Of a DNA stretch of 37,658 nucleotides, positions 1 through 29,750 are shown piece after piece. Below the pieces are notes generated by a model. That model searched no databases. It saw nothing but the letters and a program-made list of their open reading frames with translations, and was not told the DNA's origin. Source of the DNA: Tolypothrix carrinoi HA7290-LM1 (GTDB lineage: Bacteria; Cyanobacteriota; Cyanobacteriia; Cyanobacteriales; Nostocaceae); the NCBI GenBank assembly GCA_019358935.1, contig JAHHIK010000084.1, positions 1-37,658 on the forward strand. Reading direction: 5' to 3'. Numbering within the stretch: position 1 is the first letter of the stretch; every line of letters starts with the position of its first letter. The position numbers were made by a program, and so were the translations under genes.

Positions 1-116
1 AAGGCAATTTAGTTGTCATCTACAGGGGATTAAAGTGCGAACTCTATCCTTTTGAGGATTACCCTATAGAGGCTAATCATCCCCCGATTTCTCGGTTTAG
101 ATTAAACGAATCGCAC
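1..116 (-). mobile_element. Group II intron C, 5' end only (continues beyond left window edge), inserted in tnpB after codons ...S-T-K-T-C
   Basis: Minus strand reads ...TCT ACT AAA ACT TGT|GTGCGATTCGTTTAATC. GTGCGATTCGTT is the same 5' boundary seen at 2739 and 4738, and tnpB homology stops exactly here, at the first Cys of the zinc finger. Confidence 0.8.
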
Positions 117-345
117 ACAAGTTTTAGTAGACGGATACCATTGATCTATAAATATGACCCGCTTGCCTTTCTTTTTGGCAATCCACTCTAGAATTTGTAT
201 AAATTCTCCAAAAGCTAGGTCTGATATCTTGCGTCCCCTTCCTACGTTGCATTCCTTTGAGATTTAAGGTTTCAAAGCACAACACATCAAACTTATTAGT
301 TAGGTCGTGGGCTAGCTTCCAAAACCAATCACGTCTAGCATTAGA
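117..345 (-). pseudogene. tnpB: IS200/IS605 tnpB, exon 2 (between introns B and C), with an internal frameshift near 240
   Basis: Reads SNARRDWFWKLAHDLTNKFDVLCFETLNLKGMQR (RuvC-II Glu), then in a shifted frame GRKISDLAFGEFIQILEWIAKKKGKRVIFIDQWYPSTKTC. Confidence 0.85.
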
Positions 346-2739
346 ATTAAACTCAACGAGATTGTCACCAATCCCGTTGGTCTTCAAAACCGTGCGTAAC
401 AGTTTCCCGTTACACGGCTCCTCAACGGTGCGATGCTTGTCATACATACCTATTGCCATCTCTGGCAGTTTTCTCATCGTGGCAATGTCTGTGCAGAAGT
501 TGTAGGTTTTTATATACATCCTTTCCACCTTTCGATTTGGGGATGATATGGTCAACTTCCATTACATCATCTTCTCTAAAATACAATCCGCAATAGGCGC
601 ATTTCCCTTTTTGTTTTTTGAGTAGCAATGTTACTCTTGTTGGCAGTAAGGGGTTCTTGCCTTTTCTCTCACTCCAGTAGACTAGGTTTCCATCAAAGGG
701 AGAGGCTTTTCCTCTTACTTTAACGTGCCTCACGATTTCTGTCTTGGCGTGTTTCAGTAGGGTTGATGTAACTTTTCCCTCTTTGGTTGATGCGAATACC
801 CAATTGTCGTCGCCTCTTGTCTTCCAGTATTTAACTGAAATCCAATGCCCTGTTTTTCCGGGATGGCGGCGTTTTGCCCAGGATTGAAGCTTTTGAAATA
901 TTAGACGGTCAATATCTGAAAAGATTTCTTTGCTTATCACCATTGAGTAATAATTTGCCCATCCCCTGATTACAGGGTTTAGGCGCTTTATTAGAGCCTC
1001 TTGAGGGGCTGATTTATGAGCGTCGATGAGCCTACAGATTTCGTCGTAATGTCTCTTTATTGCCTTTACACTGGGTTTGATGAGTGTTTTAAATCCTAAT
1101 AATTTTCCTTGTGAGGATTTTCCAGATTGGGTTTTTCCTACTTTGTACTGTCTGATATTAAATCCGAGAAAGTCGAAGCCTTCTTGGGATTTTATATTAG
1201 GTTTTTGTAGGGTGTGACCTATTCTAGTTTTATTAGGTTTTAGTTCTAGTCCCATCTTTTCTAACCACGTAGATATTTCGGCTTTGCATCTTACGATTAC
1301 ATCGAGGTCAGGGTGTAAAATGACAAAATCATCGGCATATCTGATGAGGGATAGTGCTTTTTGATTAGATTTCTTATTTCCTGGCAAGGATTCGGCAATC
1401 TTGTTGATTTCCTCTTCCATTCCATGTAATGCGATGTTTGCTAGTAGAGGAGATATAACCCCACCCTGTGGCGTACCTTCATCTGTTTTTGACCATTCAC
1501 CGCCATCAAATACACCTGATTTTAACCATGCCTTAATTAGACGGTTTAGGGTTGGGAATGTATTGATTTTGGTTAGTAGTTTTTTGTGGTTGATTTTATC
1601 GAAGCATTTTGATATGTCGGCATCTAAAACCCATTTTGGTTTTTGTTTGATCTGACTGAATATTGCTCCGATAGCATCGTGGGCTGAACGTCCTGGTCGA
1701 AAGCCGTAGCTGTTAGGTTCAAACTTTGCTTCCCATTCTGATTCAAGTGCCAGTTTGACAAGCGCTTGTGTTGCCCTATCCTGCATTGTCGGTATCCCTA
1801 AAGGTCTTTTCTCCTCCGTTCCGGGCTTGGGAATCCAGACCCTTCTGGTGGCTTTTACCTTGTTGGTTAGCTTCAGGTTTACAATTAGGGTAATTCTTGC
1901 CTTAGATGTTAAGGATTTGACACCATCAACACCTGCGGTTTTCTTACCTTGGTTATCCTTTTGGACTTTGCGTACAGCTAGTGCTTTTGCTGACCATGAC
2001 CTCATCAAGGTCTTTTGGAGTCTGCGAACTGCCTTAGTATCACCACGAACAGAGGCTTGGAAAATTCTTTTCTGAAGCTTGAACACATGACGCTCTAGCT
2101 TTCGCCAGGGTATCAAGTTCCATTCCACCATCTGATTGTTCAGTGTTTTAGACATATATACTTCTTCTAAAAGACTTTTCCTTTCACACCATCGTGAGTA
2201 CGTCAGCATATCTTGACCATTACGGTCAAGCTTTCGCTTTTTACTCAATCTCTCCCACTACTGCATTCGGTTAGCACCTGCTTTGAGTGTTCGACCTCTC
2301 AAAGAGCTTAATAATGGGTTACTTCGTTCCGGGTGACAATTCTATGTATCTTTAGAGTGATGCTTTTCGCCGGGTTTATTGGGGGTGCATATTGGTCGGG
2401 ACATTATCCGCCAATCCCATATCCTTTACCTTTTGGTGTAGTGATTCAGCCTGATTGCACTACTTGTACGTAACGACGATTCAAACGCATCTTTAAGCCA
2501 AGGCTTTACTCATGGATACTTTGCTCGGTGGACACTGATTTAGGCTGTCAGTGGAGCCACCTTTCATCCCCGCTTTACGGATTGATGGCTAGTCGCTACC
2601 GTAGGGGAAGGGCTTTCACTCCTGCACTTGGAGGATAGGTTTTTCACCTACATTGTCATCCAGTTATCAAGGTTCAGTACCTTGTGGCTAATCCCTCTCC
2701 ACCTTTATTAGGCTTTGATTTCTAGCCAACGAATCGCAC
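346..2739 (-). mobile_element. Group II intron B (IIB/chloroplast-like class), apparently complete, 2394 nt
   Basis: 5' GTGCGATTCGTTGG at 2739. Domain V GAGCCGTGTAACGGGAAACTGTTACGCACGGTTT at 420-387, then domain VI ending ...GAGTTTAAT at 346. Removal joins ...AAG TAT GAG GAT ATT|TCT AAT GCT AGA (KYEDI-SNAR) in frame. Candidate EBS1 AAUGUC (2405-2400) pairs with IBS1 GAUAUU. Confidence 0.93.
440..2155 (-). CDS. ltrA: Group II intron-encoded reverse transcriptase/maturase with HNH endonuclease domain (~571 aa from MSKTL)
   Basis: RT0 KKTAGVDG, RPLGIPT, SYGFRPGRSAHDA, GTPQGGVISPLLANIAL, RYADDF, X domain LNPVIRGWANYY, C-terminal CAYC...EVDHIIP...NLQLLHRHCH. Uninterrupted ORF. Confidence 0.96.
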   Translation of the reverse strand: MSKTLNNQMVEWNLIPWRKLERHVFKLQKRIFQASVRGDTKAVRRLQKTLMRSWSAKALAVRKVQKDNQGKKTAGVDGVKSLTSKARITLIVNLKLTNKVKATRRVWIPKPGTEEKRPLGIPTMQDRATQALVKLALESEWEAKFEPNSYGFRPGRSAHDAIGAIFSQIKQKPKWVLDADISKCFDKINHKKLLTKINTFPTLNRLIKAWLKSGVFDGGEWSKTDEGTPQGGVISPLLANIALHGMEEEINKIAESLPGNKKSNQKALSLIRYADDFVILHPDLDVIVRCKAEISTWLEKMGLELKPNKTRIGHTLQKPNIKSQEGFDFLGFNIRQYKVGKTQSGKSSQGKLLGFKTLIKPSVKAIKRHYDEICRLIDAHKSAPQEALIKRLNPVIRGWANYYSMVISKEIFSDIDRLIFQKLQSWAKRRHPGKTGHWISVKYWKTRGDDNWVFASTKEGKVTSTLLKHAKTEIVRHVKVRGKASPFDGNLVYWSERKGKNPLLPTRVTLLLKKQKGKCAYCGLYFREDDVMEVDHIIPKSKGGKDVYKNLQLLHRHCHDEKTARDGNRYV

Positions 2740-3422
2740 AATATCCTCATACTTGCGTACTAAATTCTTTCTAGCCCGTTCTCGATTGGATGACCCTTTT
2801 AGCTTCTTGGAATGTTGTTTACTCGCTCTGTTAATGGTATTGAGAGACTGTTTAAGAAATTGGGGAGATTTAATACCGGAGCCATCAGAGCAGGTGAGGA
2901 ATGTCTTTAAGCCGAAGTCAAATCCCGCTATTCTACCAGACGTGAATTTGATTTCTGGTTCAACTACATCGTCAACTACGACAACTATAAACAACTCACC
3001 CAATGGTGTGCGTTTAATCGTTAATGTTTTAACTGTTCCCTCTATTTTTCTAGACTTCCAAAATTGATAAACTTTCTGCCCAATTTTGACCCGATTGCTA
3101 CTTAAAAATTTATACCCTGCTTGCTTAAGGGTGAATGATTTGTACTTCTTAACTTTCTTAAATCCTGGCGGACGAACCCCCTTCTTATTGTGTTTAAAAA
3201 ACAATTGGTATGCTTTCAAGGGTGCGTTGACAGATATCTTGCACTGCTTGAGAACCCACTAATTGCCAAAACTCTTTACGTTTCCGCAATTTGGCTATAT
3301 GAGATTGAAGTTTGGCACAACGAGCGGTGTTTACCCCACATCCGGTAGTACCGACGATGAAGGGCAATACAATGATTATAAATGACCCCAGCAGTGTTAA
3401 TCATCCGCTTGAGGCATCTATT
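2740..3422 (-). pseudogene. tnpB: IS200/IS605 tnpB, exon 1; 5'-truncated, with frameshifts near 3320 and 3220
   Basis: ORF 2722-3219 carries PPGFKK, RuvC-I GFDFGLK and RARKNLVRKYEDI. Upstream frames read NRCLKRMINTAGVIYNHCIALHRRYYRMWGKH and CAKLQSHIAKLRKRKEFWQLVGSQAVQDICQR. No start codon or IS left end is visible. Confidence 0.85.
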
Positions 3423-4201
3423 GTTCCGTCTGTTGACTTGTATTTGTGAATATTTTCGATACCATTGAGGGCGATGTTAGCTAAAAGGGGACTTATCACA
3501 CCGCCTTGGGGAGTTCCCTGTTCAGGAAACTCTGGGTTTGTACCCGCCTTGAGGCAGCGGAAGATACCTATTTTCATACCTGCTGGGGCTATGAGGTTAT
3601 CCATGATAGAGGTGTGATTTATCCTGTCGAAGCATTTCTCAATATCAAGTTCTATGACTCGTTTATTGATTCCGTTGCAACTGGAGTTTAGGTTGCTGAA
3701 TAGGATTTTCTGTGCATCATGTGCCGAACGTCCTGGTCTAAAACCATAGCTCTTTGCATGAAAGGTTGCTTCGTGTGCGGGTTCTAGTGCATATTTTGCT
3801 AGGCATTGCCAAGCTCTATCTGCGATAGTCGGGATTTTAAGCATCCTGGTAGAACCGTCCTTTTTAGGAATTGGTATACTCCGGAGTTTTCCGTGTATCC
3901 AGTTCTTCGCGGTTGCGCTTAACAGGTCTTCAAGCTCAAAGCGCTCCTTAGGAGTTAGTAGCTTTTTGCCGTCGATGCCTGCTGTCTTTTTACCTGCGTT
4001 TAGCTGAGTTACTTGACGGATTGCCAAAAATCTAGCCGCTTTGGACTTCAGAATAAGTCGTTGTAGAGACATCGCTTTCCGCTTGTCTCCTACTCGAATA
4101 GCTTTAAACACTCGACGTTGTAGGCGGAATAGGTTCTTCCGAAATTTCTTCCAGTTGAGGTTCTTCCAAGATTCGCTATAGTTTTCTATGCGTCCAATCA
4201 T
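3401..4201 (-). pseudogene. Group II intron A reverse transcriptase, truncated after RT4 (no YADD in window)
   Basis: GKKTAGIDGK, RMLKIPTIADR, SYGFRPGRSAHDAQ, ELDIEKCFDRI, GTPQGGVISPLLANIALNG; the frame then runs into tnpB sequence and stops. Confidence 0.9.
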
Positions 4202-4738
4202 GCTCTGACTCTGTTAAGTGTTTTCTGAATACCTTGCAGCAATTACGCCGCATCCTACCCGAATTAAAGGAATTCCGTATCTCGTCTTACCTACTTTGGG
4301 GTTCGACTATCCCAAGACCTTTAATTCGTTTTTATTCGTTCCCTCAGATGATTGGTTGTTCCGTTAGGTAGTGCCAATTTAACCATCAGACCCCCAGGTT
4401 CTTGCCGTTATTAACTAGACATTCGGCGGGGATTACTCTGATATAGTCGGGGTTACAAGATATGACCCGCTAAAGGCTGGGTTACTTTTCTAGGCATCTG
4501 TTTTACCGTGGGAACTCCCTATTAGCACCAGTGTCCACCCATAACGGTAGTCTGATTGTGCCCTGTCCCCAGCTTCACTCTACAAGTAACGAGCTTGTTC
4601 GGTGTGGGCAGATAAGGAGTCAAGCATGAACCTTGCTGGCAGGGCTTTCACCTGCATCAACCTGAGAGTTTAACTCCGTAGAGTTAGTTAGTATATGTAC
4701 GGACTGGATACCGTGATTCTACTAACAACGAATCGCAC
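3423..4738 (-). mobile_element. Group II intron A, 5' portion (domains I-IV and N-terminal RT), inserted in the dctQ 3' end
   Basis: ...TAAAGGC A GACTAG|GTGCGATTCGTTG at 4738. Candidate EBS1 CUAGUU (4418-4413, loop of a GCCG/CGGC stem) pairs with IBS1 GACUAG. Candidate EBS2 GCCUUUA (4477-4471) is the exact complement of exon UAAAGGC. Confidence 0.9.
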
Positions 4739-5258
4739 CTAGTCTGCCTTTAATAATCGCAAAATTTTTGATAGCCTCAGAAATTCCCTGAAAAATCAAC
4801 AATATACAGGCGACAATAATCATCGCTTTAATCGGGTAACGCGGCAATCCACCCGGATCGGGCGACGTTTCCAGAATTTGCCACGAAGCAGCGATCGTAT
4901 CCCAAGAAAAAATAATTACCATGATGCAGAAGGGAATCAGAAAAAATATTGTTCCCAGCAAATCTGCAACTGCCTTACGCTTAGGCTGCCAATTATTGTA
5001 AAAAATATCAACGCGGACGTGTTCGTTATGTTTGAGCGTGTAAGCCGCTCCTAACAAAAAAACTAAATCAAATATATACCATTGCGCCTCAATGTAAGCA
5101 TTAGAGGTAAGATTGCTGCCGATAATTCGCCCCAAGTATCGCCCAACAACATTCCACACGCCAAGTATGACCATGACTAGCACCAGCCAACTAGTAAGTC
5201 TACCAATGCGATCGTTACAAGCATCAATAATTCTAGAAATTTTTAACAGTTTTTCCAA
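4722..5258 (-). CDS. dctQ: TRAP transporter small permease subunit (DctQ family); last ~5 codons supplied by intron A
   Basis: Four hydrophobic segments, EAQWYIFDLVFLLGAAYTLKHNEHVRVDIFY motif, DPGGLPRYPIK. Confidence 0.88.
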   Translation of the reverse strand: MEKLLKISRIIDACNDRIGRLTSWLVLVMVILGVWNVVGRYLGRIIGSNLTSNAYIEAQWYIFDLVFLLGAAYTLKHNEHVRVDIFYNNWQPKRKAVADLLGTIFFLIPFCIMVIIFSWDTIAASWQILETSPDPGGLPRYPIKAMIIVACILLIFQGISEAIKNFAIIKGRLGAIRC

Positions 5259-5367
5259 TGTTCTCTACCCTCTTCAATAGTCGTAAATGTAGTTTACAAC
5301 CGAACTGAGCAAGCTTATAAAAACTAGCAATAATTGCCAAACTCACACATTTCTACCTCCTACTTAA

Positions 5368-5856: not shown

Positions 5857-6433
5857 TATCGATGTCTTGACATAGAAGAATATTATCTCTCTTCTTCTCT
5901 CACAAAAATATTCCTCAAAACCCATTTACTCCAGTCTTTACCATTAAGTTTGGTTTGCCAAGCTTGATATAACTTTTGACCGTAACCGACTCCAAATATC
6001 GTCAATCTACCATCCTGATTTTGGCTAACTTTAAGATTCTTACTAATTTGCTCGGTAAAATCTTGCCATTTGCCCCATTTACCATTAGGTTCAGTTTGTG
6101 CAACTCGATATGCTTTTTTATCAGTACTAATTGCAAAAGCTTCTAGTCTACCATCTGGATTTTGAGCTACTGCTAAAGTTTTCGCAACTCCACGAGAAAG
6201 ATTGTCCCATTTACTCCAATTGTTACTATTGATTGTGGTTTGCCAAATATGATATGCCTTATCATCAGTACCAACTACAAAAACTTCTAATCTGCCATCT
6301 TTGTTTGGAGCTACTGTTACACTTTTAGCAGTTCCATCAGCAAGACTGTCCCATTTACTCCAATCCTTACTATTAAGTGTAGTTTGCCAAGCATGATAGA
6401 CTTTGTTATCAGTACCAATTGCAAAAACTTCTA

Positions 6434-7758
6434 GTACAGGGTGGCGGAAATAAACCGACCATTTTTGTGAGAGACTAAGTAAGAAGGGTGAAAACTTTTA
6501 TAGATAGTTTTTAAGGAATCAGGGTGTGGCAAGGTTAGCTCCAAAATCATTAGAATTGCTGTGTGGTGAACGGGACGAACTGGAACATTTACTCAAAAGG
6601 CACAGTACACCACAGCAAATCGGACTACGAGCAAAAATTATTCTACTTGCTTGGGAGGGCAAAAATAACCGTGACATTGCTCGAACGTTGAATATTAGTA
6701 GAGATATGGCTCGGACGTGGCGAAACCGATGGTTAGAATTAGGCGATCGCCAATTACCAGTGATGAAAAAATTGAGCGATGCAGAACGGGGTGGGGCACC
6801 TGCAAAATTTAGTATGGAGCAAGTAATTGAGTTGTTCGCGCTTGCATGTTCGCTACCCGAAGACTATGGACGACCAATAAGTCATTGGACAGCAAGAGAA
6901 CTGGCGGACGAAATCATCAAACAAGGCATTATTGAAAGCATATCAGTCCGTCATGTTAAAAGATTATTAGAAGAAGCAGAACTTAAACCCCACTCCTCGT
7001 CGCTACTGGTTAACACTGAACTGAGGACGAAGAATTTGACGCAAAAGTTGAAGATATTACTAGTTTGTACATCAGTGCAATTGAACGTTACAAAAACGGA
7101 GAGCGTACAATGTCCATTGATGAAATGACGGGTATTCAAGCTACTGAGCGTCTAGAAAAAGACTTACCGATACGACCAGGTAAGGTTGAAAAAAGAGAGT
7201 TTGAGTACATTCGTCACGGTACACAAAGCTTAATTACCAGCTTCGATGTTGCCACTGGTCAAATTGTTGAACCCAAATGTGGAGATTCAAGAACAGAAGT
7301 TGATTTTGTCCTTCATGTTCGTCGAGTTCTAGACAGTGACCTTCATGCGATAAAATGGCATTTAATTATGGACTGTCTTAACACTCATCAGTCTGAGTCC
7401 TTAGTTCGTCTTGTTGCTGAAAAAGAAGGTTTAGACATCGACCTTGGCATTAAGGGTGAAAGTGGCATCCTCAAATCGATGAAATCTCGTGCAGCTTTTT
7501 TGAGTGACCCAACACACCGAATCGTTTTTCATTACACGCCCAAGCATTCTTCTTGGCTCAACCAAATTGAGATTTGGTTCAGTATTTTGGTTCGCAAGTT
7601 ACTTAAGCGTGCCAGCTTCAAGAGTCAGAATGATCTGAAAACTCGAATCCTTGATTTTATTGACTATTTTAACAAAACAATGGCTAAACCTTTTAAGTGG
7701 ACGTATAAGGGTAAAGTATTGGCTATTTAATAGTTGGCTTATTTACGCCGTGCCGTAC
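6434..7758 (+). mobile_element. IS630-family insertion sequence, 1325 bp, TA target duplication
   Basis: Imperfect TIRs GTACAGGGTGGCGGAAATAAACCGAC / revcomp GTACGGCACGGCGTAAATAAGCCAAC. TA at 6432-33 and 7759-60. The empty site AACTTCTAGTCTGCCATC matches the sister repeat at 8041. Confidence 0.93.
6526..7730 (+). pseudogene. IS630 transposase (HTH ORF 6526-~7010, DDE ORF ~7025-7730); junction appears damaged
   Basis: N-terminal HTH (RAKIILLA...WRNRW...HWTARELA) and DDE residues in [12 protein letters not shown] and SSWLNQIE. The linker RYWLT lies in a third frame ending in TGA, so two frame changes are needed. Confidence 0.8.
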
Positions 7759-8548
7759 TAGTCTGCCATCTTGATTGGGAACTAATGTTAGGTTATCAGC
7801 AATGCCACGAGAAAGATCGTCCCATTTACTCCATTCTTCGCTGTTGGGTTTAGTTTGGTGAGCGTAATAAACCTTATCATCAGTACCGATCGCCACAACT
7901 TCTAATCTACCATCTTTATTTGCAGCTACTGCCAAACTTTTCGCAATCCCACTCCTAAGGCTTTTTAATGGACTCCAATCTTTGCCATTAACCGTGGTTT
8001 GCCGAGCATGGTAAACTTTTTTATCGTTACCAATTGTAAAAACTTCTAGTCTACCATCTTGATTAGAAGCTACTGTCAGACTTTTAGCAGTTTGATTTGA
8101 AAGACTTTGCCAATCACTCCAATCTTCGCCATTCGGTGTATTTTGCCAAGCATGATGAATATTATCATCAGTGTCAATTACAAAAGCTTCTAATCTACCA
8201 TCTTGATTTTGACTAATTGCTAGGCTACCTGTGACGCGATTTAAGTCTAACTGAGTAAAAATCGTATTTGCTTGAGTAGATTCTTGTAGATTCGCCATTT
8301 AAACCTCCTAAATCTCTATTAAATGAGAGATGAATAAATAAAGAATGACAATTTTTATCTCTGCCTTTTATTTAATAGGCTTAATCGCAATCAAATTATG
8401 CAGTTTATCGTAGCGTCCACCTTTGCATCTATCTAAAGTAGTTTTTTGCATGAAACGCGCTGCAAACAAGATCCCCCCATCTCTAATAAAAGCGATCGCT
8501 TGTGCTTTCAACGCGATAAAATTCTCAAGCACAACGCACTCCACAGCT

Positions 8549-9382: not shown

Positions 9383-10874
9383 ACTACCCACACTGACCCA
9401 GAGTACCGGGTACAGTGTCGGCTTCTGTACTCAATGGCGAGTGCCTCAGATGCGACTTTCGCCCCATCTTTGGTCTTACCTCCCCTCCTACAGCAGGGAC
9501 GGCTGAACCATCCGCCCTTAGCATTCTGATTCCTTCTGCTCTAATGTTGATGGCTGCATTACCATCTCTGTCATGATGAGTGCCGCAATGAGGGCAAGTC
9601 CATTCCCTCACATCTAGTGGCATTTCACTTACTTGATAGAAACAATTAGAGCAAAGCTTGGAACTGGGGAACCATCTATCTATCTCAACCAACTTTGCAC
9701 CTTTGCGTTCTAGCTTGTAGGCTAAAAAGTTGGTGAATGTTCCCCATCCACAATCAGATACCGCTTTTGCCAATTTATGATTACGAACCATGCCCTTGAC
9801 ATGAAGGTTTTCTACCATGACAGCTTGGCTATCGCTGACCAACTTATAACTTGCGTTTGTGTAGAAAATCTTGCCGCGAATTGCTAACTCGTTCGTACAC
9901 CTTGGCAACAACTTTTCTATATCTATGCCGCGAATTACTTCCTTTTTGTTTACGAGCTAATTTTTGTTGTTTGCGTTTTAGATTTTTTTCGTGTTTAGCA
10001 AAATGTTTAGGATTGTCGTACTTTGACACTTTTTCGCCGTCAGTGACGACTGCAAAATGCTTTAGTCCTAAATCAATCCCATAAATCTTGCCTTCTGTCG
10101 CAGCCGGGTTTTCCCCTTCTATTTCGGTCAGAATGGATGCAAAATACTTGCCTGATGGAGTCTTGCTAACAGTAACAGTTTTAATTTTCCCCGAAATTGG
10201 TCTATGTATCTTGGCTTTGACTATCCCAATATTGCCTGGAAGTTTGACAAGGGAGCCATCCACGATTTTGACTTTTGAGGATACTGAATAGACTGCCTAC
10301 CGTGCTTAGACTTGAACCGAGGAAAGCCTGCGCGTTTATCAAAAAAGTTTTTGTATGCTGTGGTCAGGTTAAGTGTTGTAGCTTGTAAAACTTGGCTATA
10401 ACAATCAGACAGCCATGCAGTATTTTCTGCTTTTTTGAGTGCTGGAAGAAGTGCATTGAGTGCTGAACGTCCAAGTCCTTTGCCAGTTTGCTTGTAAGTC
10501 TCAATAGATTTATTTAGCGCATAGTTCCACCACCAGCGGGCAGAACCAAACGTTTGGGCTAAGAGTATTTGTTGCTCTTTGGATGGATATAAACGAACTT
10601 GTACAACTTTGTGCAACACTCAATATCACCTCCTTGATTTTTTATTTTATCGCAATATACAGTTATTGATAAAAATGTTCCGGACAAATTTGGCAATTCC
10701 TCGCGACGTGTACGTCTGAGTGAGTATTCTGTCCGTCGAACCGTCGCTATCGACCAACATTCCTAATTGAACTGTGTTCAATGTCGGTCGTTGGTCAATT
10801 CGTCATTGCCCACCTTATATCCCGCCACTGCCGATCAAAGACGGAATACAGTGGGGGACGAGGGCGTGTGAGAG
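9379..10874 (-). mobile_element. IS200/IS605-family (tnpB-only, IS1341-like) element, 1496 bp
   Basis: Right end ...GGGTAGTTCAC (9379) preceded by hairpin CACTGTACCC..GGGTCAGTG. Left end abuts TTTAA (minus strand, 10879-10875). No TSD. Excision restores menB ...CTT CCT TAA plus its terminator. Confidence 0.88.
9384..10619 (-). pseudogene. tnpB: TnpB RNA-guided nuclease, split into three frames (frameshifts near 10275 and 9855)
   Basis: VRLYP HTH start with AGGAGGTG RBS, GFPRFKSK, RuvC-I GIDLG, RuvC-II VENL, zinc finger CSNC/CPHC, RuvC-III DRDGNAAINI. Confidence 0.92.
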
Positions 10875-29689: not shown

Positions 29690-29696
29690 GATGAAT

Positions 29697-29745
29697 GGTA
29701 GATGCACCCTGGTTAAGCCCTAGAGAAAACTCTGGGGCATTTTTT
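29697..29745 (+). ncRNA. nsiR1: NsiR1-like small RNA, single copy
   Basis: 5' GGTAGATGCACCCTG matches my recollection of the NsiR1 conserved 5' end; DIF1 promoter upstream; terminator GCCCTAGAG-AAAA-CTCTGGGGC-ATTTTTT. Confidence 0.7.
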
Positions 29746-29750
29746 ATTTT

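Follow-up and report, generated by a model that had tools for sequence, protein, structure and literature searches.

Architecture of the locus

We analysed a tnpB gene of the IS200/IS605 type that is split by two group II introns and lies at the start of contig JAHHIK010000084.1 (hereafter C84) of Tolypothrix carrinoi HA7290-LM1. The window, meaning the whole stretch of DNA under analysis, covers the first 37,658 nt of this contig. The draft genome to which it belongs (G000) amounts to 7.96 Mb in 184 contigs and is 99.65% complete; its smallest listed contigs are about 10 kb, and contigs below 10 kb are absent. All elements from dctQ through intron C lie on the minus strand, in the order dctQ, intron A, a deletion junction, tnpB exon 1, intron B, exon 2, and intron C (Table 1). 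Three group II intron starts (GTGCG...; GTGCGATTCGTT) are found at 4738, 2739, and 116 on this strand, and the sole Rfam matches in positions 1-5000 are RF00029 and a domain 5 (D5) family, with no group I intron. The tnpB exons, including a third exon on contig C66 described below, carry the three RuvC motifs and the zinc finger of TnpB in a reading frame that is broken by three frameshifts. Exon 1 also matches the NCBIfam model IS200_TnpB (E 1.2e-24), as a fragment scoring below the cut-off.

Table 1. Features of the intron-split tnpB locus and of a multi-copy intron elsewhere in the same genome
Feature	Position	Strand	Basis
Intron C, first 116 nt; position 1 is the contig start	1..116	-	Start motif; match to G039 intron
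tnpB exon 2: RuvC-II Glu; last codon is the first zinc-finger Cys	117..345	-	Homologue alignment
Intron B, complete group II intron, IIB type, 2394 nt	346..2739	-	Start motif, Rfam D5/D6, empty alleles, EBS/IBS
Intron B domains 5 and 6 (AGC triad, bulged A, ends AAT)	346..422	-	Rfam RF00029, fold
Intron B protein, 571 aa, RT-maturase-HNH	440..2155	-	RVT_N, RVT_1, GIIM, HNH
Exon-binding sites EBS2 CGTAC (2470-2466) and EBS1 AATGTC (2405-2400, loop of domain I stem)	2400..2470	-	Exon pairing
Intron-binding sites of intron B, IBS1 GATATT (2745-2740) and IBS2 GTATG (2752-2748)	2740..2752	-	Pair with EBS1, EBS2
tnpB exon 1, without start codon; RuvC-I Asp in GFD present	2740..3422	-	Pfam OrfB_IS605 E 5.4e-12
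Deletion junction zone, intron A fused to tnpB	3423..3440	-	Alignments, synteny
Intron A, 5' half of third group II intron	3441..4738	-	GTGCG start; RVT_N and partial RVT_1
dctQ (TRAP small permease), interrupted by intron A 11 codons before its stop	4739..5264	-	Pfam DctQ E 4.6e-21
Met-site intron, own genome G000	3' ends C27:120, C123:23135, C146:16758, C151:342; 5' end C85:37138

Empty alleles define both intron junctions

The exon-1 DNA of the window tnpB matched 82 of 200 genomes of the family, and we fetched the best locus from each of the top 29. Both intron sites are contiguous, that is empty, in all 29 loci; several of them read KYEDI/SNARRDW across site B and STKTC/SSCGH across site C, and the others read close variants. 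Since these alleles are uninterrupted, the junctions of introns B and C are exact and both are in phase 0. The results agree with an earlier note on this DNA, made from the sequence alone, which had described a tnpB gene with two group II introns, an in-frame KYEDI/SNARRDW junction after excision of intron B, and entry of intron C directly after the codon of the first zinc-finger Cys. No empty or second copy of the window tnpB was detected by blastn and tblastn in the own assembly, from which contigs below 10 kb are missing.

Intron B shows the hallmarks of a IIB intron, namely a GUGYG 5' end, the catalytic triad, the branch A, and an AY 3' end. Its D5/D6 match to RF00029 (422-346) scores 52 bits against a cut-off of 40 and is the only one that passes for the three introns, and its protein scores 348 bits against TIGR04416 (cut-off 300) with the YADD and HNH motifs intact. 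Pairing with the 5' exon is complete, with 6 of 6 positions for EBS1/IBS1 and 5 of 5 for EBS2/IBS2. We compared the EBS1 columns of 20 B-like introns: at least 5 of the 6 positions pair with the intron's own 5' exon in 16/20, compared with 33/378 cross pairings. This covariation indicates site-specific insertions, with the loop of intron B tuned to its own tnpB site. The closest relative of intron B (in G085, 92-94% identical) lacks a 5' end and runs off its contig on the 3' side, so its target is not visible; the closest relatives with visible hosts sit in other genes or in intergenic DNA.

Intron C is cut by the contig start, and its continuation is probably found on contig C66. The end of C66 contains an intron 3' end, followed by tnpB exon 3 (SSCGH...RDENAA), a hairpin, TCAA, and the 5' part of dctP. 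An intron in G039 matches both parts, its start being identical to intron C at 98/99 positions and its 3' end to the C66 intron end at 123/126; the C66 exon 3 also continues the alignment of the empty tnpB alleles. Because of these matches, the exon 3 continuity, and the dctQ-dctM-dctP synteny, C84 and C66 are likely to be adjacent and joined through the unassembled body of intron C. The open reading frame (ORF) and EBS1 of intron C are visible only in copies that are 86-97% identical (L111, L113), and the EBS1 of L111, which is 96.6% identical to intron C, fits the tnpB site at every position, with one mismatch to its own ectopic site. The G039 copy of intron C (L091:2080-3967) carries a transposase-like insert after nt 99, ISAs1-like by eye, and has lost most of its reverse transcriptase (RT).

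The tnpB copy is dead and its locus has been rearranged

The earlier note had proposed that this copy, with about three frameshifts, is probably dead, and the damage proves more thorough than claimed. Compared with intact homologues, +1 frameshifts lie at about 3321-3327 and at 3216-3222 in exon 1 and at 243 in exon 2. Each is accompanied by a block of 4-6 altered bases and is not a simple slip. In addition, homology to tnpB starts only at 3422, about 13 codons into the gene, so that the start codon and the left end of the insertion sequence (IS) are gone. With three frameshifts, no left end, and no start codon, the copy, as judged from its sequence, can neither move nor make TnpB.

The flanks account for the missing left end. 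The RT ORF of intron A begins at 4201 and breaks off before YADD, and homology to full-length relatives stops at about 3440. Two of the 10 congeners searched (G150 and G183) have dctQ, uninterrupted and in the order dctQ, dctM, dctP facing them; synteny with these congeners shows that the 3' half of intron A, 1958 bp of host DNA (the end of dctQ, dctM, and the end of dctP), the IS left end, and about 13 tnpB codons were lost at the junction. No match to DctM was found in the own assembly (0/1 genome). The empty IS site in dctP is preceded by TTAC in both congeners, TTAC precedes the IS left end in four of the five family loci shown, and the right end on C66 consists of a hairpin and TCAA. A TTAC target and a TCAA end are IS608-like. 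The dctP synteny and the TTAC site show that the IS inserted after TTAC in dctP and that a deletion fused intron A, which lies in the end of dctQ, to tnpB; the deletion presumably came last. Insertion of the IS into intron A was also considered and was rejected, as the IS right end is found in dctP. As a side observation, the TRAP locus dctQ/dctM/dctP is destroyed in the own genome and whole in 2 congeners, and dctQ DNA was not found in 8/10.

A stack of elements or a set of frameshifts such as this could also come from mis-joined repeats. The assembly is a draft, it breaks within intron C, and the depth of sequencing run X1 is about doubled at 1-160. However, independent Logan contigs of run X1 span 98-2598 and 2577-4195 without any difference from the assembly, although this run is possibly the source sample and would then share its sequencing errors. 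The depth of the run over intron B equals that of the flanks, indicating a single copy. The junctions are exact against empty alleles, and the flanks fit the dctQ-dctM-dctP order of two congeners. We therefore regard an assembly artefact as extremely unlikely.

Site C is a recurrent homing site

We next asked how often the two sites are occupied. An exact scan of GTDB genomes for site C returned five stretches, three of which lie in the window tnpB family (two in G201, one in G202); the remaining two are L111, in an unrelated gene and antisense, and L114, whose intron start differs and which shows no match to tnpB. A fourth occupied copy was found in G039 in a 200-genome search, giving four further copies in three genomes. 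Their 5' ends are 98.6-99% identical to intron C in G039 and G201 and 86% in G202, while identity in exon 2 drops to 72-79%, and the two host copies in G201 resemble each other at 77%. Near-identical introns in such diverged hosts indicate separate insertions, and on these comparisons site C is a true recurrent homing site. All of these copies are damaged or unassembled: that of G039 is 5'-truncated with a broken intron, that of G202 has a stop, and of the G201 copies one is truncated and the other is open as far as the contig end.

Site B gave a different result. No exact junction of a second occupied site B was present in metagenome contigs, and in 401 genomes of the order the 6 other one-mismatch matches have no intron start, with about as many matches in a reversed control. 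A third site in the window tnpB family lies after GFDFGLK in G060 and is occupied by a distant relative of intron B; the spliced tnpB ORF is whole there (378 aa stop to stop) and the intron RT is interrupted. Ten loci with partial matches to the tnpB family were also checked for introns, and only deletions, small inserts, and contig ends were found. The view that this tnpB family is a recurrent target thus holds for site C and, through G060, for a third site, but an occupied site B was seen only here. Counting empty against occupied copies, as the earlier note had suggested, gives 29/29 empty among the fetched family loci, with site C occupied in the four other copies. The data do not support a special role for this family, given the 29 empty loci and the many other tnpB families that are targeted.

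Group II introns are enriched in tnpB genes

We then examined where group II introns end across the own genome and its relatives. In the own genome, 11/23 D5/D6 intron ends lie in tnpB (9 by 3'-exon profile, 2 by RuvC-III motif and right end), while tnpB-like sequence makes up 0.59% of the assembly. One further end (C180:8554) lies in an HNH gene judged by motif to be iscB-like, immediately ahead of the HNH motif, so that half of the own intron ends are in tnpB or iscB. One own intron end with the last 100 nt identical adjoins four tnpB 3' exons that are only 48-58% alike, at a shared site, the Met codon after the RuvC-II motif (Table 1). A fifth end of this Met-site intron (C6) lies in unrelated DNA.

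Forty family genomes yielded 208 further D5/D6 matches; of the best 130 by score, 121 were examined, after removal of 8 that are presumably the inner ends of nested introns and of 1 lying at the edge of a contig. Seventeen of these 121 ends, from 8 genomes, lie in tnpB (12 by 3'-exon profile, 2 by Pfam, 3 by 5'-exon profile), and 1 more is weak. The fraction is a floor, as the profile was built from the window tnpB family and the own genome, and related introns in it are not independent. Three of the 121 lie in RRXRR (IscB/IsrB) genes and 7 in the RT genes of other introns. The iscB/isrB-type genes are interrupted at L198, L218, and L196, and the twintrons (L131, L132, L203, L130, L242, L243, L293) occupy conserved sites. 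Outside these groups, a B12-dependent ribonucleotide reductase gene contains an intron at one conserved site in four genomes (G000 C61:7259-9744; L124, L159, L166).

The sites in tnpB cluster at RuvC-I, the bridge-helix region, RuvC-II, the zinc finger, RuvC-III, and the tail. In a set of 13 spliced cases, phase 0 occurs 9 times and phases 1 and 2 twice each; further phase 1 and 2 sites are found elsewhere in tnpB. The insertion of both window introns between codons, to which the earlier note had drawn attention, is therefore real but without functional meaning, because all three phases occur and splicing restores the sequence in any phase.

Such clustering raises the question of whether the host gains from the introns. 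Poor splicing could damp a DNA-cutting nuclease, and selection beyond mere tolerance would then enrich introns in tnpB; insertions in or beside the catalytic motifs (RuvC-I, II, III) and the zinc finger are indeed many, and the share of half of the own intron ends points the same way. However, conserved motifs are equally needed by a site-specific intron to find many copies. An antisense insertion would silence better, and none was found among the tnpB cases, while antisense hosts do occur for other genes. Most tnpB copies are also empty, including the 29 family loci and 23 uninterrupted own tnpB ORFs of at least 300 aa. Host-favoured silencing is thus very unlikely.

We built a quick tree of 66 RT N-termini, in which 16 rows are tnpB-hosted. 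These rows need 14 host changes, compared with 14.4 in shuffles, and 231/500 shuffles are as low; at least 8 changes are forced by well-supported branches. Many intron lineages are therefore found in tnpB, and no clade dedicated to tnpB is seen on this tree. In G020, G024, and G090, identical introns occur both in tnpB and in unrelated genes.

Intact occupied copies and the question of co-transposition

The earlier note had also proposed looking for frameshift-free intron-bearing copies at different loci, and a pair in G090 fits in form. Among 20 loci, fetched mostly because their B-like intron is multi-copy, G090 contains two 4248-bp blocks of whole IS plus intron that are 99.67% identical and have unrelated flanks (C1:1935230 and C1:3867725; L288 and L286). 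Both IS ends are present, and predicted splicing gives a 452-aa frame in both. No empty copy of this IS was found in the two-contig genome, where 2/2 copies are occupied. ORFs that are intact after predicted splicing are also found in G060, of the window family, and in G115, G098, G025, and G020; the G115 trio represents different tnpB genes.

These copies raise the possibility of a composite element, the inverse of an IStron proposed in the earlier note. In it an occupied, intact IS would transpose whole, with TnpA supplied in trans and requiring no more than the IS ends, spliced TnpB would restore the unit at excision sites, and the intron would spread along with the IS. The duplicated G090 block and the intact spliced ORFs fit this scheme, an equally undecided pattern is described in the supplement of PMC4810608, and TnpB restoring its own element at the donor site is described in PMC10055086. 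Other data weigh against it. Between the two G090 blocks there are 4 differences over 2477 nt of intron and 10 over 1771 nt of IS exon (binomial p = 0.024, from a single test that ignores unequal selection). One of the IS-borne introns also has an identical third copy, located in an unrelated gene. The divergence and the identical free copy lean towards separate homing after duplication of the IS, although a like divergence could also arise through unequal selection or gene conversion. A pair in G024 was considered as a case of co-transposition and rejected in favour of likely separate homing, as its two members carry different intron variants. All window-family copies with intron B or C are damaged or unassembled, the window copy has no left end, and the RT tree holds no clade of tnpB-hosted introns. 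We consider the composite element quite unlikely as an account of the observations, and nothing at the window locus is a cooperating composite element. A broader form also seems unlikely, in which some cyanobacterial IS605 elements move as intron-bearing units that make their RNA-guided nuclease only once the intron has been spliced, with splicing gating TnpB homing. The G090 pair would then exemplify these units, and the window would represent their dead final stage with two introns; if it were true, the intron would gain a second and a third route of spread in these units.

The locus as a probable pile-up of independent insertions

Taken together, the results are most probably explained by a fossil pile-up, produced by ordinary and independent retrohoming into an abundant, dispensable target with conserved motifs. 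An IS200/IS605 element with tnpB only inserted after TTAC in dctP, and two unrelated group II introns would each have reverse-spliced into it at a site matching their own EBS loops. Intron A entered the neighbouring dctQ, and a deletion, presumably later, fused it to tnpB. The EBS pairing is seen for intron B in the window and for intron C in near-identical copies, and homing as the route is suggested by the general biology of group II introns. An intron tuned to one conserved motif (RuvC-I, II, III, or the zinc finger) would find many harmless tnpB targets. The enrichment in tnpB is evident from the counts, and its cause is probably that tnpB genes are abundant and dispensable and share short conserved motifs across diverged copies. 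PMC4810608 (Suppl. Fig. S9) and, for intron family F4, PMC2882425 come to a matching conclusion. At the observed rate, two introns in one tnpB would be expected now and then.

Several points weigh against this explanation. The G090 pair is intact and occupied without an empty copy, which co-transposition explains equally simply, and the absence of antisense insertions in tnpB could reflect selection for spliceability. The RT tree is a quick version with 14/59 inner branches well supported. The share of tnpB-like sequence is taken from the own assembly alone, in which contigs below 10 kb are missing, with the whole assembly as baseline rather than other dispensable DNA. Introns nested in other introns occur about as often as introns in tnpB.

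Relation to known systems

Group II introns of the RT-HNH kind that target tnpB of IS605-1_CC and IS605B-1_CC are shown in Suppl. Fig. S9 of Kapitonov, Makarova, and Koonin (2016; PMC4810608). As in the present case, a cyanobacterial RT-maturase-HNH intron lies in sense orientation in tnpB, one and the same intron uses a single site across diverged tnpB genes, and two near-identical occupied copies occur, for which co-transposition was left undecided by the authors. The supplement mentions many more examples at different positions as data not shown. On this evidence, both the nesting of introns in tnpB and the ambiguity over co-transposition have been known since 2016. Their site lies at about residue 50/51, whereas the window introns lie at the bridge-helix region and at the first zinc-finger Cys; moreover, two different introns share one dead tnpB here, and counts are given. 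In a literature search that left most subscription journals outside, no report of two introns in one tnpB or of frequencies was found.

In Thermosynechococcus elongatus, family F4 of TeI3 introns inserts at a conserved site of ISEL1, of the IS200 family (Mohr et al., 2010; PMC2882425). In both cases mobile DNA is the preferred target and offers a way to proliferate, whereas the F4 introns have no ORF and use a single site, and the passages on F4 do not name tnpB. IStrons, in which a group I intron is fused to IS605 or IS607 (PMC13565253, PMC10690162), likewise combine an intron and a TnpB element in one locus. In an IStron, however, the IS is spanned by the intron and spliced out of the host gene as a whole, while the group II introns of the window carry their own RT, sit within tnpB, and bring the host gene no benefit; no group I intron spanning the IS is found at the window locus.

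The window element resembles IS200/IS605 elements with tnpB only in its insertion after TTAC, its subterminal hairpins, its TCAA right end, and its RuvC and zinc-finger motifs, and differs from them in having no left end and no start codon. None of the fetched family members had a visible tnpA alongside.

The copy in the window is a relic. The wider pattern is of some modest interest, both in practice and for evolution. Genes of the tnpB and iscB types that are split by introns are wrongly called as fragments, and several give whole proteins after predicted splicing. The shares of intron ends in tnpB, 14% of those sampled in family relatives and 48% in the own genome, put numbers to the 2016 remark on further examples. 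The counts are also relevant to the proposed origin of the IscB/Cas9 HNH domain from such an insertion, and the G090 pair offers a concrete case for studying splicing-dependent TnpB and co-transposition.

Other features of the window

A second, unrelated tnpB at 9387-10619 on the minus strand has two frameshifts and no introns. An IS630-type transposase at 6508-7730 on the plus strand is encoded in two overlapping frames (helix-turn-helix and DDE_3) and sits between similar repeat-protein ORFs at 5883-6497 and 7723-8298. In addition, a match to the small RNA NsiR1, above the Rfam cut-off, is present at 29696-29746 on the plus strand, which suggests a heterocyst-forming cyanobacterium.

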